Assembly (NCBI RefSeq): GCF_025273655.1 | Contig: NZ_CP045921.1 | Coordinates: forward strand, 480,001 to 512,000 | Source: Candidatus Saccharimonadota bacterium | GTDB taxonomy: Bacteria > Patescibacteriota > Saccharimonadia > Saccharimonadales > Saccharimonadaceae | Reading direction: 5' to 3' | DNA length: 32,000 bases | Shown: piece by piece, positions 1-15,366 of the stretch | How positions within the stretch are numbered: the first letter of the stretch is position 1 | Layout of the letters: the number at the start of each line of letters is the position of its first letter | Translations under genes and position numbers: made by a program | Notes under the pieces: generated by a model | The model's database searches: none | What the model was told of the DNA's origin: nothing | What the model saw: only the letters and a program-made list of their open reading frames with translations

Positions 1-1088
1 CGCGTACATTTGACTACGGTAAGCCCGAGGTAGCGCATTTTCTCCTCAGCAACGTGCGCTATTGGCTCGACGAATACCATTTCGACGGCTACCGTTTCGA
101 CGGCGTGACAAGCATGCTCTACTATAGTCACGGCCTAGAGAAATCATATAGTAGCTACGATGACTACTTCGATGGCGATGTAGATCTCGATGCACTCACC
201 TATCTCACGCTCGCAAACGCCGTAGTGCACGGGGTAAAGAAGCATGCTATTACTATCGCTGAAGACATGAGTGCGCTGCCTGGTCTCGCCGCTCCTATAG
301 ATGTCGATGGTATTGGGTTCGACTACCGCCTGAGCATGGGGGTGCCTGATCTCTGGATCAAAACACTCAAGGAGAAGAAGGATGAAGATTGGGATCTCAC
401 GCATTTGCTTCACGAGCTCACCGCACATCGGCCAGAGGAGCGGACGATTAGCTACGCCGAGAGTCACGATCAAGCGCTCGTGGGCGACAAAACGCTGATA
501 TTTCGCCTGGCGGACGCCGATATGTACGACCACATGCTGGCGAGCGACACCGATCTAGTAGTGGAGCGCGCGGTCGCCTTGCATAAGCTCATCCGGTTGC
601 TTACTGCTAGTACGCATAGTGGTGGCTATCTCACGTTTATGGGCAACGAATACGGGCATCCGGAGTGGATCGATTTTCCGCGTCCAGGCAACGGGTGGTC
701 ATACCAGTATGCGCGCCGCCAATGGAGCTTGGCAGACGATGCGAACTTGAAGTATTCGCAGCTTGGTAGCTTCGACCAGGCACTCACGACACTCCTGCGC
801 GATGTAGACGGCGAGGTGGATTACCGCTATATCCACCAGGGCGACGGTGTGCTGTCGTATATGCGTGGCAACTATCTGTTTGCCTATAATTTCTCGCCTG
901 CCCAGTCGTATACAGACTACGGAGTGCCTGCACCAAATGGCAAATATACCGCGGTACTCTCGAGCGACAGTAAGGAGTTTGGCGGCCAGGGTCGCGTCGA
1001 TAGCCATGTCGCTTACATGGCCACTTCTGGCCAGCTCATGCTGTACCTGCCTGCACGCACAGCCTTAGTACTACGCCGGGATAAATAG
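1..1088 (+). CDS. glgB: 1,4-alpha-glucan branching enzyme (GH13, eukaryote-like GH13_8 type), C-terminal ~360 aa; 5' end outside window
   Basis: Frame 3 is open from nt 3 (RTFDYGKPEVAHFLLSNVRYW...), so the GTG at 54 is internal. GH13 motifs YHFDGYRFDGVTSMLY, AESHDQALVGDKT, FMGNEYGHPEW. Stop at 1086-1088. Confidence 0.85.
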   Translation, partial: RTFDYGKPEVAHFLLSNVRYWLDEYHFDGYRFDGVTSMLYYSHGLEKSYSSYDDYFDGDVDLDALTYLTLANAVVHGVKKHAITIAEDMSALPGLAAPIDVDGIGFDYRLSMGVPDLWIKTLKEKKDEDWDLTHLLHELTAHRPEERTISYAESHDQALVGDKTLIFRLADADMYDHMLASDTDLVVERAVALHKLIRLLTASTHSGGYLTFMGNEYGHPEWIDFPRPGNGWSYQYARRQWSLADDANLKYSQLGSFDQALTTLLRDVDGEVDYRYIHQGDGVLSYMRGNYLFAYNFSPAQSYTDYGVPAPNGKYTAVLSSDSKEFGGQGRVDSHVAYMATSGQLMLYLPARTALVLRRDK

Positions 1089-1196: not shown

Positions 1197-1889
1197 TCAG
1201 CCGACGAGCTCGTAGTCTGCTCGAGTGGCGACACTAGCGCCATCGGGCACAGGTATGCCTAGAGCACGAGCTGCACTGAGGGCTGCGTCGATCAGAGATG
1301 GTGAGCCGCTGATGATGCCGACGACTTCGTCGTTAGCATCAATCACCGGCGAGCCGGAGTCGAATGGCGTGACAGCCATGCCCTTGATGACGATCCCGAA
1401 CTTGGTGATTGCAACGACGGTGCCGCACTGGCGGACCTTGTTGGCAATTCCGTGGCCGTGTTTGCACACAGTGGAACCGTGGCGCGGCTGTCCGACGCCT
1501 TTGACCGGCACCTCGTCGCGTACGATAACGTTCGGCGCCATCTGTACGGTGGCGATGTCGGCGTAATTGGCACTCACACCACTTCCGTCTGGGTAGGTAG
1601 TGCTGCGAATGACTGTGCCGACATACTGGCCGTTGGCATCGGTGATTCTGTCATTGACTTTGCCACAGTGACCTGCGAAATCAAAAGTCCTGCCACTGAC
1701 AGTGGCGACGTTGCAGCCGCCCCCGCCCTGGGGGATGACCTTGACACCGACGCCAATCACAGGTGCAGGTGCGGCACTTGCCTCGCCTGCACCGTGGGAA
1801 ATAGCGCCGATCAGTCCGACGAGAATTGCTGCGCCGATCAGTCCGACGAGCCACGCTCGAATACTTCTGGCACTGACAATGGGAATCAT
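1197..1889 (-). CDS. Secreted or membrane-anchored S1 family serine protease, streptogrisin/alpha-lytic (S1E)-like
   Basis: N-terminal hydrophobic signal/anchor ending ASA/AP. Triad contexts FAGHCG (His), YADIATV (Asp), TPFDSGSPV (Ser). Cys spacing GSTVCKHG...RQCGTVV resembles S1E. SD AAGGAGAAGTC-ATG. Hand GC counts are 62% and 67% on lines 1261 and 1681. Confidence 0.7.
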   Translation of the reverse strand: MIPIVSARSIRAWLVGLIGAAILVGLIGAISHGAGEASAAPAPVIGVGVKVIPQGGGGCNVATVSGRTFDFAGHCGKVNDRITDANGQYVGTVIRSTTYPDGSGVSANYADIATVQMAPNVIVRDEVPVKGVGQPRHGSTVCKHGHGIANKVRQCGTVVAITKFGIVIKGMAVTPFDSGSPVIDANDEVVGIISGSPSLIDAALSAARALGIPVPDGASVATRADYELVG

Positions 1890-1981
1890 GACTTCTCCTT
1901 GAGAGTTGGTTGGGTGATTTGTTAACGAGCAATGGAAGAGGGTAGCTGGCTGCTACTCAACACTCTCTCACTCATGAATTA

Positions 1982-2010
1982 ATTATAGCATAAGTATAAT
2001 AAAAAGTCAA
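1982..2010 (-). promoter_or_regulatory. Sigma-70-type promoter for the protease gene (TTGACT-17-TATAAT)
   Basis: The reverse complement of 1982-2010 reads TTGACT ttttattatacttatgc TATAAT. It sits in an AT-rich spacer 9 nt after the kinase stop codon. Confidence 0.6.
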
Positions 2011-2018
2011 TAATAACA

Positions 2019-3044
2019 CTATTTTTTTACTGGTATGTAAACAGTGAATGTGCTGCCCTGTTCCAGCGTGCTTTCGACGCTGAGTGTGCCATGGTGTGCC
2101 TTGACGAGTCGATGCGCAATAGGTAGTCCAAGGCCGTATCCTTGGGTTTGCGAGCGTGAAGCATCTGCTCGGTAGAAACGGGTGAAAATGTGTGACACGT
2201 CTTGCTCGGCGATGCCAACCCCTTGATCGGCAACGTGAATGTAGGTGCCACCTCTAGCATCATGGGCTGCAGTAAGTGTAATCGTAGTATCATCTGGACT
2301 GTATTTGATAGCGTTGTCGAGTAGGATGGTGATGATTTGCGTAAGTGCACCGTCGTCAGCGTGTAGCGTAATCGTAGGAATCAGATTGTCGACAGAGATG
2401 CGTTTGTCGACGGCTTTTGGCGCTACAGTGGCTAGGGCGGTATCGACCACCTCTGTAAGTTTGACATCCCCCAGTGTGAGTGTGGGCTGATGTGCTGACA
2501 AGCGCAAGAGTCCGTCAGTCAGTTGCTGCAGACGGGCGATTTCATCTAGATTATCCTGAATCGTTTCTCTGGCATCTGTGAGTGTCAGTTTTTTGCGGCG
2601 AAGCGCAACTTCATTGGTGGTGCGTAGGGCTGTCAGGGGTGTGCGAAGCTCGTGGCTTGCATCACTTACAAACTGAGTCTGGGCGTCCATGGCTTCCTCG
2701 ATAGGTTCGAGTGTGCGCCGCGCCAAGTAGTAGCTGAAAATACTGCCACCGGCTAGTACGAGCAGATTGATAACGGCGAGTTTAGCGAATATGTCACGCT
2801 TGCCTTCCTCGATGCGCTGATTGATGAACGAGCGAAAGCCCGATGGTGTTTGCATAGGAAAATCATCGGTTATACCAATAGCGCTACGCGGTGGTCGCTG
2901 ACGCTCCAGCTGGCTGGTAGATGTGGCGTAGAGTACGATACTGAAACTGAGACTCATGATCATGATGATGCTCAGGTACGTCAGCATCAAACGCGCCGTA
3001 TCGGTGCGTAGAAACGAGCGAAATTGGGTGAGCTCGTGGCTCAC
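2019..3044 (-). CDS. Sensor histidine kinase (HisKA + HATPase_c), two TM segments, no HAMP linker
   Basis: H-box SHELRTPL only ~15 aa after TM2. N/G boxes LLDNAIKYSP, DQGVGI, GYGLGL. 4-nt overlap with the upstream response regulator. Confidence 0.9.
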   Translation of the reverse strand: MSHELTQFRSFLRTDTARLMLTYLSIIMIMSLSFSIVLYATSTSQLERQRPPRSAIGITDDFPMQTPSGFRSFINQRIEEGKRDIFAKLAVINLLVLAGGSIFSYYLARRTLEPIEEAMDAQTQFVSDASHELRTPLTALRTTNEVALRRKKLTLTDARETIQDNLDEIARLQQLTDGLLRLSAHQPTLTLGDVKLTEVVDTALATVAPKAVDKRISVDNLIPTITLHADDGALTQIITILLDNAIKYSPDDTTITLTAAHDARGGTYIHVADQGVGIAEQDVSHIFTRFYRADASRSQTQGYGLGLPIAHRLVKAHHGTLSVESTLEQGSTFTVYIPVKK

Positions 3045-3718
3045 CCTTCATCCTTGATGATGTAGCCGAAGCCACGCATAGTCTCGATGAGATTGCGGCC
3101 TTTGTAGGGCTTGTCGACTTTGTTGCGGATGTAGTTGACAAATACTTCGACGTTGTTTGGTAAGATATCGGCGTCGAAATCCCAAACATGTGTCATGATG
3201 TTGGATTTGCTCACGACACGGTTCTTGTTGCGTAGCATGTACTCTAGGATCGAAAACTCTTTCGATGTGAGGGGTACTGTCTTGCCGGCGCGTTTGACTG
3301 AGCGATTGACAGTATCAAGTTCAAGATCTTCTACGGTAAGCACTTCTGCAAGCTTCTCATGAGGGCGCCGCAAGATAGCACGAACTCGAGCTAATAATAC
3401 TTCAAACGAGAATGGCTTGGCAACATAGTCGTCTGCGCCGCTGTCGAGACCTTTGATGATATCTTCTGTCTGGTCTTTGGCTGTGAGAAGGATGATTGGT
3501 GTATGATTGTCATCTGCGCGTAGCTGTTTACATACCTCGATGCCCGTTTTCTTGGGCATCATAACATCCATGAGGATAAGATCATATTCATCTGCACTGG
3601 CGGTATTGTAGCCAGCTTCCCCGTCGTACTCTACGTCGACAGCATAGCCTTCATCCATGAGGCCTTCGCGGATTGCACGAGCAATCCTGTGTTCGTCTTC
3701 TATCAGTAATATCTTCAT
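3041..3718 (-). CDS. OmpR-family response regulator
   Basis: Receiver motifs LLIEDE, LILMDVMMP, VAKPF. Winged-helix C-terminus LTSKEFSILEYM...RGFGY. Confidence 0.9.
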   Translation of the reverse strand: MKILLIEDEHRIARAIREGLMDEGYAVDVEYDGEAGYNTASADEYDLILMDVMMPKKTGIEVCKQLRADDNHTPIILLTAKDQTEDIIKGLDSGADDYVAKPFSFEVLLARVRAILRRPHEKLAEVLTVEDLELDTVNRSVKRAGKTVPLTSKEFSILEYMLRNKNRVVSKSNIMTHVWDFDADILPNNVEVFVNYIRNKVDKPYKGRNLIETMRGFGYIIKDEG

Positions 3719-3725
3719 AGTTCCT

Positions 3726-3752
3726 AGTATAGGACTTAAAACTGAGTCCTAT
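3726..3752 (-). promoter_or_regulatory. Candidate -10 box (TATACT, 7 nt from the regulator ATG) overlapped by an 8-bp inverted repeat (possible operator)
   Basis: Reverse complement of 3726-3731 is TATACT. Inverted repeat ataggact (3729-3736) / agtcctat (3745-3752). No good -35 box and no SD. Confidence 0.3.
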
Positions 3753-3777
3753 CTTAAAGCAATCCCTCAAGTATACC

Positions 3778-3805
3778 AAAAACTCTGCAGGTAGGCAGAG
3801 TTTTT
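3778..3805 (-). terminator. Rho-independent terminator after the ABC ATPase gene (A-tract/T-tract, potentially bidirectional)
   Basis: aaaaactctgc-aggtag-gcagagttttt is a perfect 11-bp stem, 16 nt after the ATPase stop codon. Confidence 0.7.
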
Positions 3806-3820
3806 GGTGAAACTTGGGCG

Positions 3821-4498
3821 CTATTTTTTGACTTCTTTGAGTTTGCCGTCACTTAGACGGAAAGTGCGGTCCGTCTTGCCGGCGATGTCGAGATCGTGTG
3901 TGACCACGATGATAGTGGTTTTCTCGGTCTTGGCCAGCGAATGCAAGAGGTCAAAGACCATTTTTCCGGTTTGCTCGTCCAGGTTGCCTGTCGGCTCGTC
4001 GGCCAAAATGACGCTCGGCTTATTGGCCAGCGCGCGGGCGATACTGACGCGCTGCTGCTGACCGCCAGAGAGCTTGCCGGGTTTGCGTTTCATCTGGTCT
4101 GGCTCGATACCTACCTGTGACAATAGCGCGGCAGCTTTGTCTTTGCGCTCAGCGGGTGCCACTCCGGCGAACTCCATGGGGAGCATGACGTTTTCGAGTG
4201 CAGTCAGGTTTGGTATCAGGTTGTAATTCTGGAACACGAAGCCGATTTTGTGGCAGCGATAGCGGATGAGGCTATGGTCGCTCATTTTGGCAATGTCTTG
4301 CTCGTCAACTTTGATGCTGCCACCAGTCGGCTTGTCAAGGGCGCCGAGCATGCTCAGAAGTGTGCTTTTGCCACTACCTGATTTACCGATGATGGAGACG
4401 AATTCGCCGCGGTCGACGCTAAATTTGAGGTCGTCGACGGCATGCACTTCTTCGCCACCAGATTTGAATGTGCGTGTGAGGTGTTCTACTACTAACAT
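3821..4498 (-). CDS. ABC transporter ATP-binding protein, MacB/LolD/FtsE-like
   Basis: Walker A GKSGSGKST, signature LSGGQQQRVSIARAL, Walker B ILADEPTGNLD, H-loop VTHD. SD AGGAGG upstream. Confidence 0.9.
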   Translation of the reverse strand: MLVVEHLTRTFKSGGEEVHAVDDLKFSVDRGEFVSIIGKSGSGKSTLLSMLGALDKPTGGSIKVDEQDIAKMSDHSLIRYRCHKIGFVFQNYNLIPNLTALENVMLPMEFAGVAPAERKDKAAALLSQVGIEPDQMKRKPGKLSGGQQQRVSIARALANKPSVILADEPTGNLDEQTGKMVFDLLHSLAKTEKTTIIVVTHDLDIAGKTDRTFRLSDGKLKEVKK

Positions 4499-4505
4499 AT
4501 GCCTC

Positions 4506-5885
4506 CTACTCTGCCCGCATCACTTCTGCTGGGCGTACTTTTGATATGAAGATCGACGCGAGTGCACTGCCGATGATGGCGATGATCAGCGCCGCACCGA
4601 TGCCGTAGAGGATGATCTCCCAACCAACAGTGGCAGTGATATTTTCTGCACTTTGCTGGAGAGCTCGTCCGGCGCCACGACCTGGGCCGCTCATCATGCC
4701 GCCAGCCTGCGTAGTTGTGCTAGAGCTTGATACGAGTGCGCTAGTGATAGGCGCTGCAGCTGCGACGCCGATACCAATACCGATAATAGCGCCGAGGAGT
4801 GTCAGTGTGATCGCTTCAGCAATAAACTGACCCATGATGATTACATTGCTACCGCCGATGGCTTTGATGACGCCGATTTCTCGGCGGCGTTCGCGGACGA
4901 TCATGATCATAGTGAGTAAGATGATGATCGCGCCGGCAAAGACTGCCCCAATGAGGCTATAGAGCGAGATGGTCTGAATATTTTCGAGCGGTGCGACAGC
5001 AGACTCGACGGTGCTGGCAGAATCGGTCACATCACCACTATCGCCCATCACCTTCTTTGCTGCGGTGCTGACACTCGAGATGTTATCGACGCTGTCGACA
5101 TTGAGTGTGATACTCGTGAGTTCGTCGACTTGGTCGCTGAGTGTTTGGACGACGGCGAGCGGCATGATTACTTGGTTGTTGGTAAACTGCGTGCCGGTGT
5201 CGTAGATGCCCACGACTTTGAACTCAGTGCCATATGCCGTAAAGGTTGAGCCGACTGCCAAGCTGTTTTTGTCAGCGATCGCTTTGCCGATGATGGCGAC
5301 GTGCTCGGTGGAGTCTGCTGCAAAGCTTGTGCCAGAAGTGAGTTTGAATGTTACGCCGTCCGATGCGAGCGCCTTCTCTGGATTGTTGCTGCCTACAACA
5401 GTGACGGGCGGTGTAAAGGTGCGGGTGACGGTGCCCTGGGAGCTGCTTGAGCTTGACTCACCCTGCCTGCCTTCTCCATTCTGCATTTGTGGCGGCGCTT
5501 GCTGGAACCCGACCCCGGAACGTTCTGAATTACGCTGTCCGAGTGAGCCAGCATCGATGCCAGATTTAAGCGTGGTGTTGTCGGTCGTTAAGCGATCACT
5601 GACTGTCTGGATGGTGCTTGAGACATGATCGATAGCAGTTAGTTTGGCGGCTTGGTCTTTGGTGAGTGGTTCGCCGCCACCTTCGAAACCACGGGCACCC
5701 GCTGGTGCGACGCTGACTGTGTTGCCGACCGATGATTTGATAGTGTCTATTTTGGCTGTGACTGCCTGGCGAGCGACGAGCATGGCAAGAGCCAGTCCGA
5801 TGCTGATGCCGAGGATGATCACGATGGATCCTGTGCGTATGATGTTGCGAAAAGCATTACGTGCCCCCCGGGATATCATATTCAT
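4506..5885 (-). CDS. ABC transporter permease, FtsX/MacB type, with a large extracytoplasmic domain
   Basis: Start moved to the ATG at 5885 (SD AAGGAGAAGTAT-ATG); the track start at 5957 has no SD. TM1, then a ~290-aa external domain with an SSSSSS run, then a C-terminal FtsX helix bundle ending KVRPAEVMRAE. Confidence 0.85.
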   Translation of the reverse strand: MNMISRGARNAFRNIIRTGSIVIILGISIGLALAMLVARQAVTAKIDTIKSSVGNTVSVAPAGARGFEGGGEPLTKDQAAKLTAIDHVSSTIQTVSDRLTTDNTTLKSGIDAGSLGQRNSERSGVGFQQAPPQMQNGEGRQGESSSSSSQGTVTRTFTPPVTVVGSNNPEKALASDGVTFKLTSGTSFAADSTEHVAIIGKAIADKNSLAVGSTFTAYGTEFKVVGIYDTGTQFTNNQVIMPLAVVQTLSDQVDELTSITLNVDSVDNISSVSTAAKKVMGDSGDVTDSASTVESAVAPLENIQTISLYSLIGAVFAGAIIILLTMIMIVRERRREIGVIKAIGGSNVIIMGQFIAEAITLTLLGAIIGIGIGVAAAAPITSALVSSSSTTTQAGGMMSGPGRGAGRALQQSAENITATVGWEIILYGIGAALIIAIIGSALASIFISKVRPAEVMRAE

Positions 5886-5994
5886 ATACTTCTCCTTGGT
5901 TATGGTTTGTTGTCTGTCAAAAGGATATGACCAAGAGATAAATCGAAACTTAAACACATAGGTGTTGCGTATTTTTGTAAATAGTATAAAGATA

Positions 5995-6023
5995 TTGCTT
6001 TTTTATTATTTTTATGTTATAAT
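5995..6023 (+). promoter_or_regulatory. Sigma-70-type promoter for the PE-PPE hydrolase gene (TTGCTT-17-TATAAT, TG-extended)
   Basis: ttgctt ttttattatttttatgt tataat read directly. It would give a ~125-nt 5' UTR. Confidence 0.55.
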
Positions 6024-6156
6024 GCATTTGTCTCGGAAAGTATACAATGTTGTGTAACAAGTACGGGTGTAATCCACTGGTCAACGATGATCAGTTAACA
6101 ATCAGAGTACAACAGAATACAACCCACCCTCACTCTTTAGAAAGCAGGTGATTCAG

Positions 6157-7440
6157 ATGTTTCGTGTTTTCGTGCGCGCTATCGCGCTCGTCACACTGGC
6201 ACTGGGGCTTGTGCTTGGCGGTTCCTCAATCGCTCAGGCAGCCCCGGTCGAGTTCGACTCGTCTTCCATCTATGCCTACGGTGGTACTGGTAACCCCAGT
6301 GCCGCTGGCATGAAGGATTCGGCAGCAGGACGCGTCGCACAGGGCGTCAGCCCTGACGTGCCGGTTTCCGAGATGTACGCTGTGAATGAGTTTCGGTTCG
6401 ATACGGGGCTCTTCGACAAGACCTACTCGGACAGTCGCAATGAAACGGCGGCGAGTATGGTGCAAACTGTCGAGGCAGCGCCGACCCTGGCGAAGAAGAC
6501 CTTGGTGGTTTATAGCCAGACCGGTGACGCCGCGCGTATCGCTGCGCGGGCACTTGTGGCGAAGGGTTTTCCTGCCGATCAATTACTGATTGTCGCTCAG
6601 GGAGACCCGGGCCGACAGGGTTCGACCAAGGGCATCGCCCAGGTACTCCGCGCGTTCAAGATTCCGGTACTCGGCGTTGATTTCGACGAGGATCAGAGCA
6701 CCAGCGGCGTCAAGGTCGTGTCGATCTGCAAGGTCGGCGTGAACGCGGATCCGATCTGCGACATGCCGAGCGACCTCGATCCGATCAAGGGAGCAAACCG
6801 GCTGGCAGGTTTTTTCACGGCGCACGGCAGCTACGGACCCGACCTCAATATGTCGAATGCGACTATTTCGGTGTACGGCAATGAGATCGACGTAGATGTC
6901 CCGACGGACACCCCATCGCTCGTTCTTCTGGCTCGCGGTGCCGGTATTGGTGTGCCCCAGGAGCTGTCTGACGCATTGTCGGATTATCTCTTGACGGACC
7001 ACAGTTTCCCGAAGCTCGAAGAGATCTTCCACGGTGATTTCCTCCCGGAACTCGCCGAGGGTCTGCTTCAGCCCAAGAAGCCCGCGCCGTTGCCTGTGCC
7101 GCAGGTCCCCACCAGCCCGGAGGAGATCCCGGCTGTCGTCGGTGACTTCGCCGGTCAGACCACAGTCTATGTGGCCGAAAATGCAGGTGCAGCTATCGGG
7201 AGTGCCGCTGGTGGTGCTGTTGGATCGAATTTCGGTCCGGCAGGAACCACCCTTGGCACTCAGCTGGGTGAGCGTGTCGGCCAGGCAGTTGGCCGTGAAG
7301 TGGGCGAAGCTGCTGCGCCTGTCGTGGCGGATATCGCCGCTGGTGTGGTGGAGTCGGTGCAAACCGGTAACCCGCAGCCAGCCGTGGATGCCATCAACCG
7401 GGCACTGCCTGCCGGCGTGCCCCCAATCCACCTGCCGTAG
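6157..7440 (+). CDS. Secreted PE-PPE-domain-like serine hydrolase (alpha/beta fold) with a Pro-rich spacer and a Gly/Ala-rich C-terminal tail
   Basis: Start set to the ATG at 6157 (SD AGGTG, 6-nt spacer). Signal peptide ...GGSSIAQA/AP. Blocks GGTGNP, LVVYSQTGDAA, FFTAHGSYG. Hand GC counts are 58-68% on three lines. Confidence 0.6.
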   Translation: MFRVFVRAIALVTLALGLVLGGSSIAQAAPVEFDSSSIYAYGGTGNPSAAGMKDSAAGRVAQGVSPDVPVSEMYAVNEFRFDTGLFDKTYSDSRNETAASMVQTVEAAPTLAKKTLVVYSQTGDAARIAARALVAKGFPADQLLIVAQGDPGRQGSTKGIAQVLRAFKIPVLGVDFDEDQSTSGVKVVSICKVGVNADPICDMPSDLDPIKGANRLAGFFTAHGSYGPDLNMSNATISVYGNEIDVDVPTDTPSLVLLARGAGIGVPQELSDALSDYLLTDHSFPKLEEIFHGDFLPELAEGLLQPKKPAPLPVPQVPTSPEEIPAVVGDFAGQTTVYVAENAGAAIGSAAGGAVGSNFGPAGTTLGTQLGERVGQAVGREVGEAAAPVVADIAAGVVESVQTGNPQPAVDAINRALPAGVPPIHLP

Positions 7441-7476
7441 GAGCGGCTGGTATTCTGTCCTTACTACCCTGGTTGC

Positions 7477-7518
7477 AAGCCCGGATCTTCGTGTGTCATC
7501 ACGATAGATCCGGGCTTC
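7477..7518 (+). terminator. GC-rich hairpin downstream of the hydrolase gene
   Basis: aagcccggatc (7477-7487) / gatccgggctt (7508-7518), 20-nt loop, followed by caactcatttt. Confidence 0.45.
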
Positions 7519-7545
7519 AACTCATTTTGGGGGCTTTGGACTACA

Positions 7546-7583
7546 CTAAAAAAGAAGGTATGCGTACATACCTTCTTTTTTCT
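7546..7583. terminator. Bidirectional Rho-independent terminator
   Basis: aaaaaagaaggtatg-cgta-cataccttctttttt. The core stem is a perfect 11 bp, flanked by an A-run and a T-run. Confidence 0.75.
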
Positions 7584-7604
7584 TGGCTGGGGTGGAGGGA
7601 TTCG
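7575..7604 (-). repeat. Displaced copy of the tRNA-Gln 3' end (T-loop to CCA) plus 9 nt of 3' flank; att-like direct repeat
   Basis: cttttttcTtggctggggtggagggattcg (7575-7604) versus cttttttcAtggctggggtggagggattcg (7765-7794): 29 of 30 identical, 190 bp apart. Confidence 0.8.
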
Positions 7605-7764
7605 GTCACGTCTCGCGACCCCGCGAGTTCACGATTGACGATACATCGTCATCGGAACGTCGCTCTCAAACTGCCACTGGCAGTTTTCGCCCCCTCATGC
7701 CACTCAGGGCTTCGAATCACTATCTCTAGACAAAGAAAAAAGTCCTAGACCTGAAGGCCTACGA
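7605..7764 (-). other. 160-bp segment bracketed by the att-like repeats; three perfect short hairpins, no ORF
   Basis: Hairpins ctcgcg-accc-cgcgag (7612-7627), tgacgat-ac-atcgtca (7636-7651), aaactgcca-c-tggcagttt (7668-7686). An imperfect hairpin with a T-run (7736-7771) follows the tRNA 3' end. Confidence 0.5.
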
Positions 7765-7773
7765 CTTTTTTCA

Positions 7774-7848
7774 TGGCTGGGGTGGAGGGATTCGAACCCC
7801 CGAATGCCGGAACCAAAATCCGGTGCCTTACCACTTGGCGACACCCCA
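7774..7848 (-). tRNA. tRNA-Gln (anticodon UUG), CCA encoded
   Basis: The reverse complement TGGGGTGTCGCCAAGTGGTAAGGCACCGGATTTTGGTTCCGGCATTCGGGGGTTCGAATCCCTCCACCCCAGCCA folds as a cloverleaf. The 7-bp acceptor stem is perfect, the anticodon loop is TTTTGGT, and the sequence closely resembles E. coli tRNA-Gln. Confidence 0.95.
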
Positions 7849-7914
7849 ATGTGTCTGTTCAGCGGTACTTATTTTACCATGCGGGCGCCAGAAGGTCTAG
7901 CTGTCCACTTTAGC

Positions 7915-8472
7915 CTAGTGTTTGAGCGCAAGTGTGGTGATGAGGCTATCGAACGTCGGGTTGTCGGGCGCTATATAAATACCTGCGAGCTGCGAGTTGC
8001 TGTCAAATTTGAGTACGGTACCTGGTTGTGTGACACCAAACTGCTCTGCAATATCCTTATGTGTAGCCAGAGTTATCCGGTAGATATGTAGGTCGTGCGG
8101 GAGTTCGCTTGCACGGGTTCGCAGCTGACTATCGAGTGCAACACTTGGCGCATGAGTGCTATCGTAGAAAAACAAGATGCGTGGTTTGCTGCTGGCGGCA
8201 CGAAATACTGCCTCAGAAAACTCCTCGTAACTCGCACCCGTGCTTGATGCTGCCAGTGACGGATTTTTGCTCGTAGTAGTTGTTTTTTTCGTGCTGGTAC
8301 TGCTGGACGATTTTGGTGTTTGCTCTGCTGGCACCGTGGAGGTGCTAGTAGAAACAGTCGTGCGCTCCTCGGTAGGTTGCGAATCTTGCCGAGTACCTAC
8401 GAGCGCAGTACTGATACCGACTATGACAACGAGCAATACAATGCCTGCGGCTGCTATAAGTTTAATGCTCAT
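7915..8472 (-). CDS. Membrane-anchored thioredoxin-fold protein lacking the CxxC motif, with a Ser/Thr-rich linker
   Basis: Start set to the ATG at 8472 (SD GGAGG), which overlaps the ATPase stop as ATGA. One TM, a linker STSTSTVPAEQTPKSSSSTSTKKTTTTSK, then ILFFYDSTHAPSVAL where Trx proteins carry WCxxC. The mature protein has no Cys. Confidence 0.55.
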   Translation of the reverse strand: MSIKLIAAAGIVLLVVIVGISTALVGTRQDSQPTEERTTVSTSTSTVPAEQTPKSSSSTSTKKTTTTSKNPSLAASSTGASYEEFSEAVFRAASSKPRILFFYDSTHAPSVALDSQLRTRASELPHDLHIYRITLATHKDIAEQFGVTQPGTVLKFDSNSQLAGIYIAPDNPTFDSLITTLALKH

Positions 8473-11006
8473 GCGTAGCTCCTCCCTACGCGACGCACAG
8501 TGTGACGTGAGTGCCATTTGAGTAGCTCGCTAGTGGCGAGCAATAGAGCAGCGCTCACTAGTGAGCTGATGAGCACATCTTGTGGCTGGACAGGCACCAT
8601 GCCAAGCCACGTGCCCGCCGGACTTTGTATAAGTATAAGTTGCAGCAATACTACCGCTACGACACCACCGTATACAAGCGGGCTGAAAGTACGGAATCGT
8701 ACTAGTGTTGAAGTATGGTCGCTGCGGGCCGAGAGTGCACTGACGATCTGCATGACAACAAACATAGTAAAGACAATAGTTTGAGCATACGCGTAGCCGA
8801 ACTGCGATGAATAGTAGATGCTTGCGATAAGACAAACAAGCATCATGATAGTGGAGAGTAGACACATGCGCACGATGAGATATTTGGGCAGTACACTTGC
8901 ACGAGGCGAGACAGGGCGACGGTCCATGATATGGCGACTATGAGGCTCCAAGCCGAGCGGTAACACGAGCGCGAGACTGACTATGAGATTGATCCAGAGG
9001 AGCTGCGAAGGGAGGAGCGCTGGCGCAGTAGCGAGCAGGAGCGAGCCTGCTATCAGCGCCATCTCTGCGATATTGGTAGTGATGACGAACAAAAACATGC
9101 GGCGAATATTGCCCACAATTGTTCTGCTCCATTTGATAGCCTCCAGTGTGGTTGCAAAGTTGTTGTCGAGTAAGATAAGGTCGCTCGCATCGCGCGCAAG
9201 TAGTGAGCTATGCGCTGTAGAAATACCTATGTGTGCCTGAATAAGCGCCGGGATATCATCGGTGCTGTCTCCTGTAGCGGCAACAATATGATGATGACGT
9301 ATGGCACTGAGAAGGCGATGTTTTTGGTCGGGCGCAGTACGGGCGAAGACAGTGACCGTCTGAGCGACACGAGTAAGTTCTGGATCGCTCATGACTGCAA
9401 GTTTGCGTGCGTCGAGCACTTGACTGCGGTTTGTCGCAATTCCAAGCTGGCGTCCGATACTGTAGGCCGTCTCTACATGATCTCCCGTGACCATGCGCAC
9501 ACTTATGCCTGCATGCGTAGCGGTGGCAACAGCGTGTTTAACGGCTGGTTTGAGCACCTGTGCAAATGCGACGAAGCCGACGAAGTGAAGGCGTTGACGT
9601 TTGGCAAGTTGACTGGGTTTGGTAATGGGCTGAGCTAGCTCGCACCATGCAATAGCTAGCACTTGGTGACCATTCGCGGCGAGCCGCTGCAGCTCGAGAT
9701 GCGCGTGTTCATACTCCGCGTCCGATAGATCGGCCATGCGCAAAATTTTTTCCGGTGCTCCTTTGAGCACGAGGCAGTACTTACTTCCATGATGCCAGAG
9801 ATTTCCACTGACGCCACTCTGATGCTCAAACGCAAATGTGTGGGCGGGCTGAATATGGCGTGCGGCCTGGTGTGGGATGTAATTTGCGAGTGCAGTGTCA
9901 TGTTCGTCGCGGACCGATGTGGCAGAAAGTGTCGCCTGCTGGCATCTGTTTAGGAACTCTTTTGTAGCGACAGAGGGTGCACACCATGTGGCTGCAACAG
10001 AGATCGTGTCACGCGTCAGCATGCCTGTTTTGTCGGATACGAGAGCGCTTATGAGGCTGAGCGGTTCAATAGCATGAGTGTGTCGTACTAGCGCGCGATG
10101 CGCGTACAGTGTGCGAAGTCCCTGGGTAGAGACAAATGCTACGGCAAACGCAAGTATTGCGGGTACAGCGGCAACGATGATCGCACTCGCGTATTCGGCG
10201 ATTTCCTCGAAAGGCATACTGTAGGCTGCGCCAAGCGCCAAAATGCCTACGATGATACCGAATAGTATGATGACAACGAGATGTACGAGGCGTGCGATTT
10301 TTTGCTGCAATGAGCTGCGTCTTGATACACGGGCCGCTCGCTGCAGCAGTTTGCCGTACTCTGTACGATTACCCGTGCTAGTGATGACTGCTACCCCGCT
10401 TCCACTCACGACGTAGGTGCCACGGTAGACCATGTTGCTGCGCTGCGGCAGCTGGGTTTCACTATGAAGTGTCTGGGGACGCTTTGCATCGGGTTCAGTT
10501 TCACCTGTAAGTTGGAGTTGGTTAACCATGAGCTGCGCGCTGTGCACGATACGTCCGTCCGCGGGTATTCGATCACCTGGTTGCAATGTCACTATGTCAC
10601 CCGGTACCAGCTCGGCCGTGTCGATATGTACTTCTATACCATCTCGGCGTACGCGTGCTCGTCCAGTTGCCTCCGATTCGAGCGTACGAAGCGTGTGCTC
10701 GTGCGAGAAACTCTGCCAGTATCGCAGCGAGGCATTGAGTACGATAATACTCGCTATCAGGACGCTTTCTGCTGCATTGTTTGCTGTGATACTGATCGCA
10801 AGTGCGATGAGGAGTAGTACCATGAGCGCGCCCCGAAAAGGTTCGCTGGCAATATGCCAAAACGAACGCCGGGAAAGCCTGAGGTGATTTGGGCCGTGTG
10901 TTTTGAGCCTCGCTTCGGCATAAATTTGGTGCAAACCCTTTTCACTCGACTTGAGTTCGTCGAGTACATCGCTGGCGGATTGGCTATGATAAAGCATTAG
11001 CTTCAT
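8469..11006 (-). CDS. P-type cation-transporting ATPase (type II/III-like), divergent signature motifs
   Basis: Cation_ATPase_N-like N-terminus, PGDIVTLQPGDRIPADG, LTGETEP, DKTGMLT, KGAPE, MVTGDH, TGDSTDDIPAL. TM4 reads AAVPAILAF instead of PEGL. About 10 TM helices. Confidence 0.85.
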   Translation of the reverse strand: MKLMLYHSQSASDVLDELKSSEKGLHQIYAEARLKTHGPNHLRLSRRSFWHIASEPFRGALMVLLLIALAISITANNAAESVLIASIIVLNASLRYWQSFSHEHTLRTLESEATGRARVRRDGIEVHIDTAELVPGDIVTLQPGDRIPADGRIVHSAQLMVNQLQLTGETEPDAKRPQTLHSETQLPQRSNMVYRGTYVVSGSGVAVITSTGNRTEYGKLLQRAARVSRRSSLQQKIARLVHLVVIILFGIIVGILALGAAYSMPFEEIAEYASAIIVAAVPAILAFAVAFVSTQGLRTLYAHRALVRHTHAIEPLSLISALVSDKTGMLTRDTISVAATWCAPSVATKEFLNRCQQATLSATSVRDEHDTALANYIPHQAARHIQPAHTFAFEHQSGVSGNLWHHGSKYCLVLKGAPEKILRMADLSDAEYEHAHLELQRLAANGHQVLAIAWCELAQPITKPSQLAKRQRLHFVGFVAFAQVLKPAVKHAVATATHAGISVRMVTGDHVETAYSIGRQLGIATNRSQVLDARKLAVMSDPELTRVAQTVTVFARTAPDQKHRLLSAIRHHHIVAATGDSTDDIPALIQAHIGISTAHSSLLARDASDLILLDNNFATTLEAIKWSRTIVGNIRRMFLFVITTNIAEMALIAGSLLLATAPALLPSQLLWINLIVSLALVLPLGLEPHSRHIMDRRPVSPRASVLPKYLIVRMCLLSTIMMLVCLIASIYYSSQFGYAYAQTIVFTMFVVMQIVSALSARSDHTSTLVRFRTFSPLVYGGVVAVVLLQLILIQSPAGTWLGMVPVQPQDVLISSLVSAALLLATSELLKWHSRHTVRRVGRSYA

Positions 11007-11078: not shown

Positions 11079-11558
11079 CTAGCTGATGCGAACGAGCTGC
11101 ATACTACTTGTACGCAAGCCGCCTGCCCATTCGATTGTCTCTTTGGCTCTACGACCGAGGAGACTCTGGCCAAGTGGGCTGTTGACTGAAATGCGCCCAT
11201 CGCTCGGATTGGCTTCGAGGCTACTGACGACAGTATAACGCACCATACGTCCATTTGTGTCCATGAGATCGACGACCGAACCAAGAGCTACTTTTAGTGC
11301 GTCGCGTTTACGAGGCAGCTGAACTGCTCGTGCGAGCTGGTCATGCTTTTCCTGGATGTCATTTGCAATCATTTCGATGCGACTTTGAGCTTCGATGCGT
11401 TCGTAGCGATCTTCGCGACTGTCGGTGCGGTCAAGCTCGCGGAGTTCGTGTTGTGCGTGGTGGAGGAGCCGTTCGAGAGAAGCAATTTCTTTCTTGAGCT
11501 CTTTCATGCCTTTTTTGCTCAGATACACAGTTTCTTGTTCTGTTACAATCATGGTCAA
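11079..11558 (-). CDS. greA: GreA/GreB-family transcription elongation factor
   Basis: N-terminal coiled coil with an acidic tip (DSREDRYE). C-terminal domain GSVVDL...ISVNSPLGQSLLGRRAKETIEW. SD AAAGGAG. Confidence 0.8.
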   Translation of the reverse strand: MTMIVTEQETVYLSKKGMKELKKEIASLERLLHHAQHELRELDRTDSREDRYERIEAQSRIEMIANDIQEKHDQLARAVQLPRKRDALKVALGSVVDLMDTNGRMVRYTVVSSLEANPSDGRISVNSPLGQSLLGRRAKETIEWAGGLRTSSMQLVRIS

Positions 11559-11660
11559 TGCTCCTTTTCTTCGTGTTTATGTGATCTCTGCTGATCACTG
11601 ACTGCAGTATGCCAGACGAATCTGAGTGTTTACTGAATTGCTTGAGAATTGTAGCTAATA

Positions 11661-12689
11661 CTACAACGCACGTGTCTGCGACAGAGGTATTCGAACCGTG
11701 AACGTGGTAAAAACGCCCGGCTGACTGCTCGCGGTGAGCTCACCATGGTGGAGCTCTACAATTTTCTTTGCCAGTGGCAGCCCAAGACCATAACTGGCGT
11801 TTTCTTCTAACGTTCGTGATGAGCTAGCTCGATAAAATCTCGTAAAAATATGCGGGAGTTTGTCTGGAGCGATGCCAACTCCGATATTTGTGACGCTGAG
11901 CTCCACGCTTCGAACACGGCGTTTAAGCGAGACAGTTACGCGAGTGTCTGAAGGGCTGTATTTGAGGGCATTGTCGAGCAGCACGACTGCCAGTTCGGTA
12001 ATACTGGTAGGATTTGCTTCTATGTCAGGAAGTTTTTTGACAGCTTCTACATCAATGCGATCGGCCCGTTCTCCGAGTGAACGAATAGCAGTGTCGACTG
12101 TTTCGGTAATATTGAACTTACGCCACTCAAGCTCGCTGTACTCAAGCCGGGCGAGCTTGAGCAACGTTGAAGATAGCTCGCTCAGTCGATCAACTTCCTC
12201 TAGGTTACTCTCGAGAATTTCGCGGTAATCTTGTTTGGTTGCGCCACTATCAGATAAGATGACTTCGAGCTCTGTTTTCATGACGGCAAGTGGTGTTTTG
12301 AGCTCATGGCTTGCGTCACTGGTGAACTTGGTCTGAGCCTCGTGAGCGGCCTCAATCGGTCGGAGGGTACGCTTGGCGAGAATGTAGGACGCGACACTTG
12401 CGATAGCAAGCACGGCAAGATTAGCATATAGGAGCATGCCTACAATATTATGTTCGGCTTCTGCAATTTGACGGTCACGTACTGTTTCAAAATTGAAGTC
12501 AGATTGGGCGAGTACGGTGGTACTTTGCGCCAACCGGGCTTCTATGACTTCAAACCTGGCGTAGAGCTCACCGCTTGCAAAATTGTAGACGAGCACGCTA
12601 AATACGAGACAGACCAGCATGATACCGGCCAAATACCAGATGGTAAGTTTGAGTGTGGCTGATTGAAACATTTTTGGAATGTTTTGCAT
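11661..12689 (-). CDS. Sensor histidine kinase (paralog of 2019-3044), two TM segments, no HAMP
   Basis: H-box SHELKTPL close to TM2. LLDNALKYSP, NIGVGI, SYGLGL. Same architecture and length as the first kinase. Confidence 0.9.
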   Translation of the reverse strand: MQNIPKMFQSATLKLTIWYLAGIMLVCLVFSVLVYNFASGELYARFEVIEARLAQSTTVLAQSDFNFETVRDRQIAEAEHNIVGMLLYANLAVLAIASVASYILAKRTLRPIEAAHEAQTKFTSDASHELKTPLAVMKTELEVILSDSGATKQDYREILESNLEEVDRLSELSSTLLKLARLEYSELEWRKFNITETVDTAIRSLGERADRIDVEAVKKLPDIEANPTSITELAVVLLDNALKYSPSDTRVTVSLKRRVRSVELSVTNIGVGIAPDKLPHIFTRFYRASSSRTLEENASYGLGLPLAKKIVELHHGELTASSQPGVFTTFTVRIPLSQTRAL

Positions 12690-12692
12690 GGA

Positions 12693-13370
12693 CTAGTGTG
12701 CCTCAAATTTGTAGCCGACACCGCGGACGGTTTTGATGTAGTGTACCTTGAACCTGTTATCTATTTTGCCGCGCAGATATTTGATATAGACTTCAACCGT
12801 ATTTGGCAAAATATCTGCATCAAAATCCCAGACGTGGCTGATGATTTGCTCCTTGGAAACCGGACGACCCTCCGATCGCATAAGGTATTCGAGTAGTGCT
12901 TGTTCTTTGACAGTAAGATCGAGTAATTCCCCATCGTAGCTTGTCTCGTGTAGCGTGGTATTGAGGGAGAGCTTGCCTGCGCGCAGCACAGTATCTTGAT
13001 GAATCGTCGGTCGGCGGAGTAGTGCGCGCACACGGGCGAGTAGCTCGTCGACGGAAAAAGGTTTCGTGAGGTAGTCGTCCGCCCCGGCGTCCAGTCCTTC
13101 TGTTTTCTGCTCGGTACTACCAAGCGCCGTGAGGATGAGCGCAGGTGCATCTATATCTTCCTCTCGGAGTTTGCGAAGTAGTGCAACACCATCTGCATAC
13201 TCACCCGGCAGTAACCTGTCAACGATCATGATATCGTATGGCTCGGTACTCGCCATAGCATAACCACCGTCACTGTCATGCTCGACATCGACAGCATAGC
13301 CTTGTCCTCGCAGTGCTCTGGCAAGCGCATTGGCGATTTTGACTTCGTCTTCGATCACCAGGATGCGCAC
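12693..13370 (-). CDS. OmpR-family response regulator (paralog of 3041-3718)
   Basis: Receiver plus winged helix, also 225 aa. Shares the identical stretch HVWDFDADILPN with the first regulator. GTG start. Confidence 0.9.
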   Translation of the reverse strand: MRILVIEDEVKIANALARALRGQGYAVDVEHDSDGGYAMASTEPYDIMIVDRLLPGEYADGVALLRKLREEDIDAPALILTALGSTEQKTEGLDAGADDYLTKPFSVDELLARVRALLRRPTIHQDTVLRAGKLSLNTTLHETSYDGELLDLTVKEQALLEYLMRSEGRPVSKEQIISHVWDFDADILPNTVEVYIKYLRGKIDNRFKVHYIKTVRGVGYKFEAH

Positions 13371-13372
13371 AG

Positions 13373-14608: not shown

Positions 14609-14610
14609 AT

Positions 14611-15366
14611 CTATTTCTCCTCCCCTTCACTTGCGGCGTCTTCGCCGTACACATGAAGAAATACGTCATCCATGGTTTTCTTTTTGAACTGCTCTAGTAC
14701 TTCGGGCACTGTACCATATGCCGCCTGAGTGCCATCTTTGAGTAAGATTAATCGGTCGCACAGTCGCTCTACCTCGCTCATGTCATGAGTAATGAGGATG
14801 ATAGTCGCACCCTTGGCACGCTGAGCTTCGATAATATCCATAAGTAAACGGCGATTGACTGGGTCGAAGCCTTTGGTTGGCTCGTCGAGAATGAGTACGT
14901 CCGGGTCGTTCATAATCGTCACGCCTAGCTGGACCTTTTGCTGTTGTCCACCAGAAAGTTTATCGACTTTTACTCTTGCTTTGTCTTCGAGCTTGACACG
15001 CTTTAAGTAGTCGAGTGACCACTGTTTTGCTTCTTGTTTAGCGAGGCCTTTGAGCTGACCAAAGTAGGTCATGACATCGAGAACTGACTCTTTTTTGTAG
15101 AGGCCGCGTTCTTCTGGCAGGTAGCCGAGCATACGGCCATCTTCTGGCTCAAATGTCTTGCCGTTGATAGTGAGTGAACCGCTGGTGGGCTGATAGATAC
15201 CAAGGAGCGCACGCATCGTTGTCGTCTTGCCGCTACCATTGCTACCGAGGAAGCCAAACGTTTCGCCCTTTCGAACTTCAAATGATAAGTCGTCGATGAC
15301 TGTTTTGTCGCCAAATTTCATACTAAATTGGTCGACGGTGATGACGGGCGCTGCTGATTTGATCAC
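14611..15366 (-). CDS. ABC transporter ATP-binding protein (ABC-2/NatA/CcmA-like)
   Basis: Walker A GSNGSGKTT, signature LSGGQQQKVQL, Walker B LILDEPTKGFD. SD AAGGAGG 5 nt before the GTG start. Confidence 0.9.
   Translation of the reverse strand: MIKSAAPVITVDQFSMKFGDKTVIDDLSFEVRKGETFGFLGSNGSGKTTTMRALLGIYQPTSGSLTINGKTFEPEDGRMLGYLPEERGLYKKESVLDVMTYFGQLKGLAKQEAKQWSLDYLKRVKLEDKARVKVDKLSGGQQQKVQLGVTIMNDPDVLILDEPTKGFDPVNRRLLMDIIEAQRAKGATIILITHDMSEVERLCDRLILLKDGTQAAYGTVPEVLEQFKKKTMDDVFLHVYGEDAASEGEEK

Follow-up and report, generated by a model that had tools for sequence, protein, structure and literature searches.

A conserved sensor-transporter module bordered by lineage-specific secreted hydrolases in the parasitic Saccharibacterium Candidatus Mycosynbacter amalyticus

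The mycolic-acid actinobacterium Gordonia amarae is parasitized and lysed by Candidatus Mycosynbacter amalyticus, an ultrasmall Saccharibacterium available in culture (PMC11880426). A stretch of 32,000 nucleotides (nts) of the 1,081,308-bp genome of M. amalyticus, hereafter the window, contains at positions 1197-7848 the genes of a predicted MacB/YtrF-type ATP-binding cassette (ABC) transporter and of a two-component system, bordered on one side by the gene of a secreted serine protease and on the other by that of a secreted esterase with a PE-PPE domain, close to a tRNA-Gln gene. It had been proposed from the sequence that the transporter and its sensor control or activate the two hydrolases, with an ordinary module beside unrelated cargo as the fallback. 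The fallback fits best: the locus is probably an ordinary autoregulated sensor-pump module carrying lineage-specific effector cargo at its borders, that is, unrelated things lying side by side, with the refinement that the cargo seems to consist of effectors aimed at the host and not of random genes. Control or activation of the hydrolases by the module is unsupported by the phyletic pattern, by the distribution of operators and by family membership. The analysis combined open reading frame (ORF) listing, tRNA search, domain scans, hydropathy, comparison of profiles with PDB structures and comparison of loci. All features listed in the original prediction were found where it had placed them by ORF listing, tRNA search and domain scans, including the divergent AT-rich promoter region, and the locus is composed as follows:

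1197-1889, minus strand: predicted secreted S1 (chymotrypsin-fold) serine protease, 230 amino acids (aa), GII36_02650
2019-3044, minus strand: HAMP-less HisKA histidine kinase, 341 aa (Pfam, hydropathy)
3041-3718, minus strand: OmpR/PhoB-family response regulator, 225 aa (Pfam)
3821-4498, minus strand: LolD/MacB/FtsE-like ABC ATPase, 225 aa (domain models)
4506-5885, minus strand: MacB/YtrF-type (type VII ABC) permease, 459 aa (Pfam, hydropathy)
5886-6147: divergent spacer, 262 bp, 33.6% G+C
6148-7440, plus strand: predicted secreted PE-PPE/cutinase-like serine hydrolase, 430 aa (Pfam)
7774-7848, minus strand: tRNA-Gln(UUG) (tRNA search), the same tRNA being found here in the clade loci described below

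Judged by its distribution, the four-gene core of permease, ATPase, regulator and kinase is old and vertically inherited in Saccharibacteria and other members of the Candidate Phyla Radiation (CPR). A total of 3,942 permease homologues were found, the best 120 of which are all at least 55% identical over their full length, and the named ones among these 120 are Saccharibacteria. A scan with an alignment of 22 permease homologues, keeping one genome per species, yielded 80 Saccharibacteria/CPR loci at 43-61% identity, with the permease-ATPase pair present and adjacent in 77. Sixty of these loci have flanks adequate for the regulator-kinase pair to be located: 34 carry it contiguously, 9 have it nearby and 17 lack it; the order of the contiguous loci is regulator-kinase-permease-ATPase in 29 cases and that of the window in 5. 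Profiles of the two hydrolase families match clade loci only, with no match in any of the 80 distant loci, and the 146 immediate neighbours of the distant modules comprise no recurrent family, the largest cluster having 7 members and being an ABC exporter. Hence the hydrolases do not co-occur with the module beyond the clade, the 80 distant loci having neither family nor a recurrent hydrolase neighbour, whereas the pairing of the transporter with the two-component system was borne out: conserved together and preceded in both of their transcription units by a putative regulator box, they are taken to form a real functional unit.

The start of the permease at position 5885, giving 459 aa, is concordant between gene callers and 120 homologues. 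Hydropathy places four transmembrane helices at residues 20-38, 312-330, approximately 355-376 and 429-447, the external domain lying between the first two. This domain had been announced at about 290 aa and is indeed present, but at 273 aa (residues 39-311) it is slightly shorter; its length is the same across the lineages compared, which makes it a family trait rather than a clade-specific adaptation. The permease matches the Pfam families FtsX (2.9e-15) and MacB_PCD (1.1e-11) above their cut-offs, and its nearest solved structures are YtrF (9o9x, E-value 1.7e-10) and the pneumococcal MacAB-like 5xu1 (E-value 1.5e-7), followed by LolE and MacB. The ATPase, a protein identical on 8 metagenome contigs, matches LolD (1.4e-73) and the MacB N-terminal domain (1.1e-65), in both cases under the equivalog cut-offs. 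The transporter is accordingly classified as a MacB/YtrF-type member of the type VII ABC superfamily. The earlier label of a MacB/FtsX-type transporter thus stands in so far as the permease is MacB-type with an FtsX domain, but it is neither FtsX proper nor BceB. The former was rejected because the FtsX models of NCBIfam are missed widely (FtsX_Gpos, 40.1 bits for a cut-off of 225; FtsX_actino, 30.4 bits for a cut-off of 250) and because solved FtsX chains are of about 297 aa, against 459 aa here; the latter was rejected because the permease has four helices and one FtsX domain, not ten helices. No gene for a MacA-like membrane-fusion adaptor was found in the window region or among the conserved neighbours.

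The regulator (receiver and winged-helix domains) and the kinase (HisKA and HATPase_c) are both recognized by Pfam over all cut-offs. Hydropathy of the kinase indicates two transmembrane helices, at 19-37 and 85-107, separated by a 47-aa outer loop. As predicted, the kinase is HAMP-less, since His131 is located only 24 residues past the second helix, which leaves no room for this domain. In classical intramembrane-sensing kinases the loop is shorter than 25 aa, a limit that the loop found here exceeds.

A direct repeat with 11-bp spacing was found in the distant loci upstream of the first gene of the module, at the position of the -35 element. It takes the form TTTAAG-N5-TTTAAG or TTCTCAG-N4-TTCTCAG depending on the lineage, with a -10 element about 10 nts downstream. 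The strict pattern is present in 12 of the 28 upstream regions of regulator-first loci and in 9 of the 50 of permease-first loci, for a background of 0.011 per 120 nts, corresponding to enrichments of approximately 40-fold and 16-fold, respectively; in permease-first loci, it is always located 62-68 nts ahead of the start codon. In the window, a relaxed pattern has only three matches, at 5953, 3757 and 11637, all on the minus strand. Two of them belong to the module:

5922-5954, minus strand: permease promoter, with the box TTTAAG-N6-TTTAT, 10 nts and the -10 element TATCCT, without a -35 hexamer
3726-3758, minus strand: regulator-gene promoter, with the box TTTAAG-N6-CTCAG, 10 nts and the -10 element TATACT
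3775-3808: terminator-like hairpin 3′ of the ATPase gene

The site at 5953, ahead of the permease, reads TTTAAGTTTCGATTTAT, followed by 10 nts and TATCCT, and the site at 3757 reads TTTAAGATAGGACTCAG, followed by 10 nts and TATACT, ending 7 nts ahead of the ATG of the regulator. Given the hairpin that follows the ATPase gene, the module would be split into two box-driven transcription units. The layout of the regulator promoter is the same in distant and clade loci: the -10 element ends 6-7 nts before the start codon in the window (3719-3731) and in many distant Saccharibacteria, suggesting that the regulator-kinase mRNA is leaderless or nearly so. With a weight matrix, each clade locus has one strong match, always about 70 nts ahead of the permease start. 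The only strong match in the window is the permease promoter (19.8 bits), and the matches independent of the training set, in the loci L220 (18.8 bits) and L221 (16.1 bits), are also at the permease promoter. This direct repeat of TTAAG-like half-sites, which takes the place of a -35 element ahead of a weak -10 element, is a candidate operator of the module's regulator. No such box was found at the hydrolase promoters, either with the weight matrix in the clade loci or with the relaxed pattern in the window.

The third relaxed match, at 11637 (TTCAG-N6-CTCAG, 10 nts, CATACT; span 11600-11640), stands before greA (11079-11558) and directly follows a second two-component system with an ABC-2 transporter (11661-15366). 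It is conserved in other loci (L088:1136, L089:1344, L094:2391 and L095:3134), and the transcription elongation factor encoded by greA may be under two-component control.

The contigs encoding the closest permease homologues provided the clade loci, which comprise ten distinct loci at a permease identity of at least 69%. Their recurrent layout consists of a divergent PE-PPE gene, then permease, ATPase, regulator and kinase, zero to two protease genes and a convergent glgB. The occupancy of the two hydrolase slots is as follows, the last locus being below the identity limit:

Window (equal to L001 and L003-L005): permease 99-100%, esterase slot filled, one protease gene
L002: permease 100%, esterase slot filled, one protease gene (a 26%-identical paralogue)
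L089/L090: permease 93%, esterase slot filled (383 aa), protease slot empty
L091/L092: permease 82%, serine-recombinase element in the esterase slot, two protease genes
L093: permease 78%, esterase slot filled (391 aa), protease slot empty
L094: permease 74%, esterase slot filled, two protease genes
L095: permease 72%, esterase slot filled, one protease gene
L096: permease 71%, other genes in the esterase slot, protease slot empty
L088: permease 69%, esterase slot filled, contig ends at the protease slot
L220: permease 69%, esterase slot filled, one protease gene
L221: permease 65%, esterase and protease slots empty

At a permease identity of at least 69%, the esterase slot is thus filled in 8 of the 10 distinct loci, and the protease slot, with 0, 1 or 2 copies, contains at least one gene in 6 of the 9 loci where it is visible. 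The occupants of the slots are only 22-41% identical, as opposed to 69-93% for their permeases. Two loci of the clade or close to it, L096 and L221, keep the module in the absence of both hydrolases, and L221 retains the order permease-ATPase-regulator-kinase-glgB without them. The reverse situation is found in L217, in which a protease 60% identical to that of the window, with the same promoter and leader, and a gene of the PE-PPE family (hhalign probability 99.9%) lie near each other and near glgB, separated by a gene for 6-phosphogluconate dehydrogenase; the transporter and the sensor are absent there. Comparison of L002 (4300-6900) with the window (1197-3718) reveals 100% identity for permease and ATPase, 96% for the regulator, 88% for the kinase and 95% for glgB, as against 26% for the gene in the protease slot. 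In two strains otherwise nearly identical, this gradient indicates that recombination has exchanged the protease cassette while its flanks were conserved.

On this phyletic evidence, the hydrolases occur only in the Mycosynbacter clade (permeases 69% identical or more) and are lineage-specific additions, as the original prediction had it, their profiles matching clade loci only. The synteny of the five genes, which had been suggested as a check, was found in close relatives but carries little weight: a neighbourhood of about 20 kb is collinear in the clade, hence adjacency says little about function. This neighbourhood includes a second ABC/two-component set, GreA, a P-type ATPase, glgB and a tRNA methyltransferase, together with larger PE-PPE-like proteins beyond glgB, an Abhydrolase_9 protein and another S1 protease, and looks hydrolase-rich rather than built on a specific pairing. 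Further large secreted esterase/lipase-like proteins are encoded just past glgB, beyond the left edge of the window (L001:15849-17927, L095:17328-18995, L220:9144-11069 and L220:11258-12973); those of L095 and L220 match PE-PPE over the cut-off, the M. amalyticus copy has a weak cutinase match and L220 also has a weak secretory-lipase match.

The esterase consists of a Sec signal peptide ending in AQA|AP, a catalytic part, a Pro-rich linker and a Gly/Ala-rich C-terminal domain (approximately residues 320-420). Named by NCBI as a PE-PPE domain-containing protein, it scores 23.2 bits with the PE-PPE family of Pfam (PF08237) for a gathering cut-off of 21, and its clade relatives reach 58.8 bits. 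In an alignment of 14 sequences, the triad Ser123/Asp201/His226 shows no variation at the serine and a conservation of at least 90% at the other two positions. The nucleophile motif reads VYSQT instead of the GYSQS of the aligned mycobacterial members, a valine replacing the first glycine of GxSxG. When compared with the PDB, the family profile retrieves 5w95 (E-value 4.7e-18) and 3aja (2.5e-14), which we take to be Rv3802c-type lipases, then cutinases, with a faint match (E-value 0.29) to 3hc7, the gene 12 protein (LysB) of mycobacteriophage D29. The PE-PPE domain is a serine alpha/beta-hydrolase characteristic of mycolic-acid bacteria, with a Ser-Asp-His triad and a GxSxG motif (PMC3037379); PE16 is a proven esterase (PMC3562317) and Rv3802c is a phospholipase/thioesterase and an essential lipase (PMC2625445). 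The protein is thus, by family, a secreted cutinase-like/PE-PPE serine hydrolase of predicted activity.

The Gly/Ala-rich C-terminal third (7100-7440, residues approximately 320-430) is better conserved than the catalytic part and is limited to copies beside the permease. It is predicted to form a helical hairpin, with a predicted local distance difference test (pLDDT) score of about 80-88, and is the only confident part of a poor model, the structure models of the esterase and the protease having been built from 2-3 sequences per alignment with an overall pLDDT of 47 and 54. In a strain variant, the esterase has 406 aa (L001:7121-8341, and likewise L004 and L005) compared to a 427-aa form (L003:7059-8342), the shortening being at the C-terminal end.

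The signal peptide of the protease ends in ASA|AP. As a single sequence, the protease stays under the Pfam cut-offs (Trypsin_2, 19.4 bits for 27.6, E-value 1.8e-3; Trypsin, 16.8 bits for 20.6), and a profile of 11 members matches the structures of the staphylococcal Jep (1.8e-7), streptogrisin B (9e-6) and alpha-lytic protease (3e-3). The triad His74/Asp111/Ser178 (motifs GH74C, D111 and DS178G) is invariant in the 11 sequences. The signal peptide contains an exact 20-nt repeat, 27 nts apart (1804-1850, minus strand), which duplicates nine residues of the hydrophobic core (LVGLIGAAI LVGLIGAI).

It had also been suggested that the hydrolases are foreign, which is borne out only in part. They have the highest G+C content of the window (0.60 and 0.61, z-scores of +2.4 and +2.9), but their third-position G+C (0.64 and 0.67) is within the native range (0.66 for the ATPase), and base composition was rejected as weak proof of foreign origin since the third position is unexceptional. 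A word-index search found 2-3 homologues for each hydrolase. An exhaustive HMMER search of 1.84 billion representative proteins found 14 homologues of the esterase, 3 of them below an E-value of 1e-10; distant matches include PE-PPE proteins of Mycobacterium and Mycolicibacterium, and identity to anything outside the clade is approximately 25-37%. No close donor was present among these 1.84 billion proteins and no donor lineage can be named.

The second part of this suggestion, a tRNA att scar beside the hydrolases, is correct in that the last 21 nts of tRNA-Gln are repeated exactly (30 nts at 97%; chance expectation 0), as an att-like element:

7584-7604: displaced copy of the last 21 nts of tRNA-Gln, att-like direct repeat

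However, the two repeats are 190 bp apart and enclose only 169 bp, without an ORF of note, and no third copy of the tRNA 3′ end was found within 3 mismatches in the 32 kb. The repeat was consequently rejected as the border of an esterase-bearing island, the PE-PPE gene being outside the repeats and a third copy being absent. A similar displaced copy is found about 190 nts from the tRNA in L094, hence the scar is old. In L091, a mobile element (3500-9700) encoding a large serine recombinase, an HNH nuclease, a D12-class methyltransferase and helix-turn-helix proteins lies directly downstream of tRNA-Gln, in the place of the esterase. The comparison of loci supports the view that the tRNA-Gln region is an integration hot spot, variable in the clade.

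Each hydrolase gene appears to be a transcription unit of its own. The signals surrounding the two genes are the following:

54-1088, plus strand: ORF of the 3′ part of glgB, convergent with the protease gene
1145-1176: perfect palindrome of 16+16 nts, 100% complementary, in the gap where glgB and the protease gene converge, a probable bidirectional terminator
1925-1975, minus strand: protease leader hairpin, within a leader of about 92 nts (1890-1981)
1982-2010, minus strand: protease promoter TTGACT, 17 nts, TATAAT with a preceding TG (extended -10), 11 of 12 consensus positions
5995-6023, plus strand: PE-PPE promoter TTGCTT, 17 nts, TATAAT with a preceding TG, followed by a leader of about 125 nts
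7548-7581: perfect 15-bp hairpin between A and T runs downstream of the PE-PPE gene, likely a bidirectional terminator for the end of this gene

A search for shared repeats in the hydrolase promoters, proposed as a check of the original prediction, gave a mixed answer: they have a common architecture (a good -35 element, a 17-nt spacer and an extended -10 element) and are 81% identical over 36 nts, TATTG(A/C)(C/T)TTTTTAT..TTATGnTATAAT, but lack the regulator box. The same TATTGAC and TGnTATAAT elements occur in another promoter of the window (21187, plus strand), and the esterase promoter of L217 differs from the pattern. A metagenome scan with the pattern retrieved at least 120 stretches, all from low-G+C organisms (median of 38% G+C), none of which encodes relatives of the locus. 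The pattern alone being that of a strong Gram-positive-type promoter, these metagenome matches are uninformative as to a regulon, and the hydrolase promoters are therefore read as strong, activator-independent and not targets of the regulator.

The leader of the protease contains in every relative a long 5′-proximal hairpin, of which the outer stem GAGUGA/UCGCUC is nearly invariant and the inner stem shows compensatory changes at four pairs. It spans approximately 90-105 nts before the first gene of the protease slot and is kept when the coding sequence falls to 22-41% identity. The copies in other loci are:

L002:6058-6157
L091:13942-14041
L094:14064-14153
L095:13984-14083
L217:2453-2544
L219:245-341
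L220:5706-5813

The leader corresponds to no Rfam family, two sub-threshold matches to eukaryotic and archaeal small nucleolar RNA models being attributable to chance, and a covariance model found no copies beyond these leaders. A conserved upstream ORF was rejected because the short frame is not conserved between relatives. The simplest reading would be that the 5′ hairpin stabilizes the protease mRNA.

Several observations nonetheless weigh against the view that module and cargo are unrelated. No terminator was detected between the kinase stop codon (2019) and the protease promoter (2010), and regulator-driven transcripts may run on into the protease gene. The gap between the permease box and the -35 element of the esterase promoter is 36-42 nts in 8 out of 8 esterase-bearing clade loci, and the box is centred approximately 84 nts upstream of the predicted PE-PPE start; because this layout is conserved, the bound regulator could affect the PE-PPE gene. 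An extended hydrolase-promoter pattern has 20 matches, all at the two slots and none elsewhere in the 1.55 Mb of loci compared, which hints at a co-regulation of the hydrolase pair. Furthermore, the C-terminal helical domain of the esterase is found only in permease-adjacent copies, and the partners of FtsEX-type transporters dock via helical domains. Finally, the case for a role in host attack is drawn wholly from family membership and the lifestyle of the organism.

The two hydrolases could be independent enzymes whose expression is partly tied to the sensor, by read-through and by the shared divergent box. It is consistent with such coupling that the -35 element of the protease promoter begins only 8 nts after the kinase stop codon with no terminator detected between, that the first terminator past the protease is the palindrome at 1145-1176 and that the spacing of box and promoter is kept in the eight loci. 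However, the near-consensus hydrolase promoters (11 of 12 positions and the TG) need no activator and carry no regulator box, the spacing of 36-42 nts spans half a helical turn and is thus not phase-locked, and the hairpin of the protease leader, after which UUU(U) stands in most relatives, may halt read-through. We consider this purely transcriptional link unlikely.

A further proposal, in which two hypervariable cassettes, one for an esterase with a clade-specific helical C-terminal domain and one for a protease with a conserved structured leader, were recruited to both borders of an envelope-stress module to give a sensor-tied host-attack locus in a clade with mycolic-acid hosts, would combine read-through, the shared box and a possible docking of the esterase helices onto the permease; it appears improbable.

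The hydrolases could also serve the turnover of the parasite's own wall, lipids or proteins, in keeping with the housekeeping role of S1 proteases and cutinase-like esterases in actinobacteria, where Rv3802c is essential (PMC2625445). Their rapid change would then reflect relaxed constraint rather than an arms race. The strain variant with the shortened 406-aa esterase (L001, L004 and L005) also speaks for this reading. Against this, both families are absent from the loci of the 80 other Saccharibacteria/CPR genomes, which have the same cell plan, and we know of no Saccharibacteria that make mycolic acids. The PE-PPE domain is otherwise typical of mycolic-acid bacteria (PMC3037379). In addition, the catalytic triads are strictly kept at 22-41% identity, which argues for selection on activity, and we give the self-turnover of the parasite a low probability.

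Finally, it is very improbable that the five genes form one host-attack machine, in which the sensor responds to an envelope or host cue and the hydrolases are activated or set free by mechanical action of the MacB-type transporter in the manner of FtsEX, an idea favoured by the recurrence of the arrangement in close relatives, by the esterase C-terminal helical domain specific to permease-adjacent copies and by the mechanotransmission generally known of type VII ABC transporters, since the module is phylum-wide without these hydrolases or a recurrent hydrolase neighbour, the external domain of the permease does not vary in length among lineages, the permease itself cannot be called FtsX (40 bits for a cut-off of 225), L217 has both hydrolases with no module between them, L096 and L221 have the module but neither hydrolase, and the protease slot is empty or holds a 26%-identical swap where the transporter is 93-100% identical, with which a specific protein-protein fit is hard to reconcile.

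Comparison with known systems places the module among sensor-pump pairs. FtsEX, which works with PcsB, CwlO, EnvC or RipC, is likewise a type VII ABC transporter and provides the model of an extracellular enzyme driven through an external domain. It differs in that the permease described here fails the FtsX models (40 versus 225 bits) and has a MacB-type external domain, that the neighbouring hydrolases belong neither to the peptidoglycan amidases nor to the endopeptidases with N-terminal coiled coils and that the association of transporter and hydrolase is not conserved outside one clade. The haem-sensing HssRS-HrtBA of Firmicutes and Corynebacteria shares the four-helix FtsX/MacB-type permease, in which the external domain likewise separates helices 1 and 2, the separate ATPase and the adjacent OmpR-type regulator and HisKA kinase, which activate the pump via direct-repeat boxes. 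However, the external domain is larger here (273 aa), and haem as the signal is without support in the present case. HssS also has a larger sensing domain and a HAMP domain, unlike the HAMP-less kinase with its 47-aa loop. BceRS-BceAB, a type of module that senses and detoxifies peptide antibiotics, similarly combines a HAMP-less, two-helix kinase with an FtsX-family ABC transporter induced by an OmpR-type regulator. In contrast to the four helices and MacB_PCD domain of the permease, BceB has ten helices with the external domain between helices 7 and 8, and the 47-aa loop of the kinase is longer than those of classical intramembrane-sensing kinases. By sequence, the best structural relatives are YtrEF of B. 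subtilis and Spr0694-0695 of S. pneumoniae, two MacB-like transporters of Gram-positive bacteria, which have the same domain order. YtrBCDEF was linked to cell-wall stress and wall thickness (PMC8060467, PMC12772383). The ytr system differs by its GntR-type repressor YtrA, in place of a two-component system, and Spr0693 supplies a MacA-like adaptor, the gene for which is absent from the locus.

The esterase shares with PE16, Rv3802c/MSMEG_6394 and LysB the PE-PPE match to Pfam and the Ser-Asp-His triad. It differs from the mycobacterial PE-PPE esterases by the absence of the N-terminal PE/PPE domain, which is replaced by a Sec signal peptide, by the VYSQT motif and by a unique Gly/Ala-rich C-terminal domain. 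LysB illustrates that an attacker of mycolic-acid bacteria can cut the mycolate layer with this fold (PMC7022511). A search of the literature for the module or for PE-PPE proteins in Saccharibacteria, or for GII36 locus tags, found nothing relevant to these genes among the papers accessible.

Two further features of the window are recorded here. The end of the P-type ATPase gene shares 49 nts (8469-8517) with the gene of a membrane-anchored, Ser/Thr-rich protein of 200 aa (7915-8517), a pairing kept in the clade, and a ribosomal protein L10 leader is located at 29290-29434 on the minus strand (Rfam RF00557, 48.4 bits for a threshold of 44).

The reading that we favour, an autoregulated module with effector cargo, can be put as a scheme. 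The phosphorylated regulator would switch on its own genes and the pump, the autoactivation logic usual for systems that handle stress or detoxification, HssRS-HrtBA and BceRS-BceAB among them. Both hydrolases would have entered the borders of the module in the ancestor of the Mycosynbacter clade, each as its own transcription unit; as the comparison of loci shows, their divergence, duplication, exchange and loss are much more rapid than those of the module. Operon borders that tolerate insertions and the hot spot at tRNA-Gln would account for their placement, rather than any control exerted by the transporter. We infer that they act as extracellular effectors against the mycolic-acid envelope and the surface proteins of Gordonia-type hosts. 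One enzyme of M. amalyticus, the GH172 arabinofuranosidase, is already proven to cleave the arabinan of the host wall (PMC10115798). Mycolic acids of the host are indispensable for infection, and lysis may be either a chemical or a physical process (PMC11880426). A role of both enzymes in breaching the mycolate layer and surface proteins is hence plausible.

The more exciting idea, a transporter that switches the hydrolases on, is unsupported by the comparisons made. For the question of how Saccharibacteria damage or kill their hosts, the locus offers two candidate enzymes, a secreted cutinase-like esterase and a hypervariable secreted protease. In addition, a phylum-wide and seemingly self-regulated sensor/ABC module with a recognizable box would give initial access to the way in which transcription is regulated in such reduced genomes.

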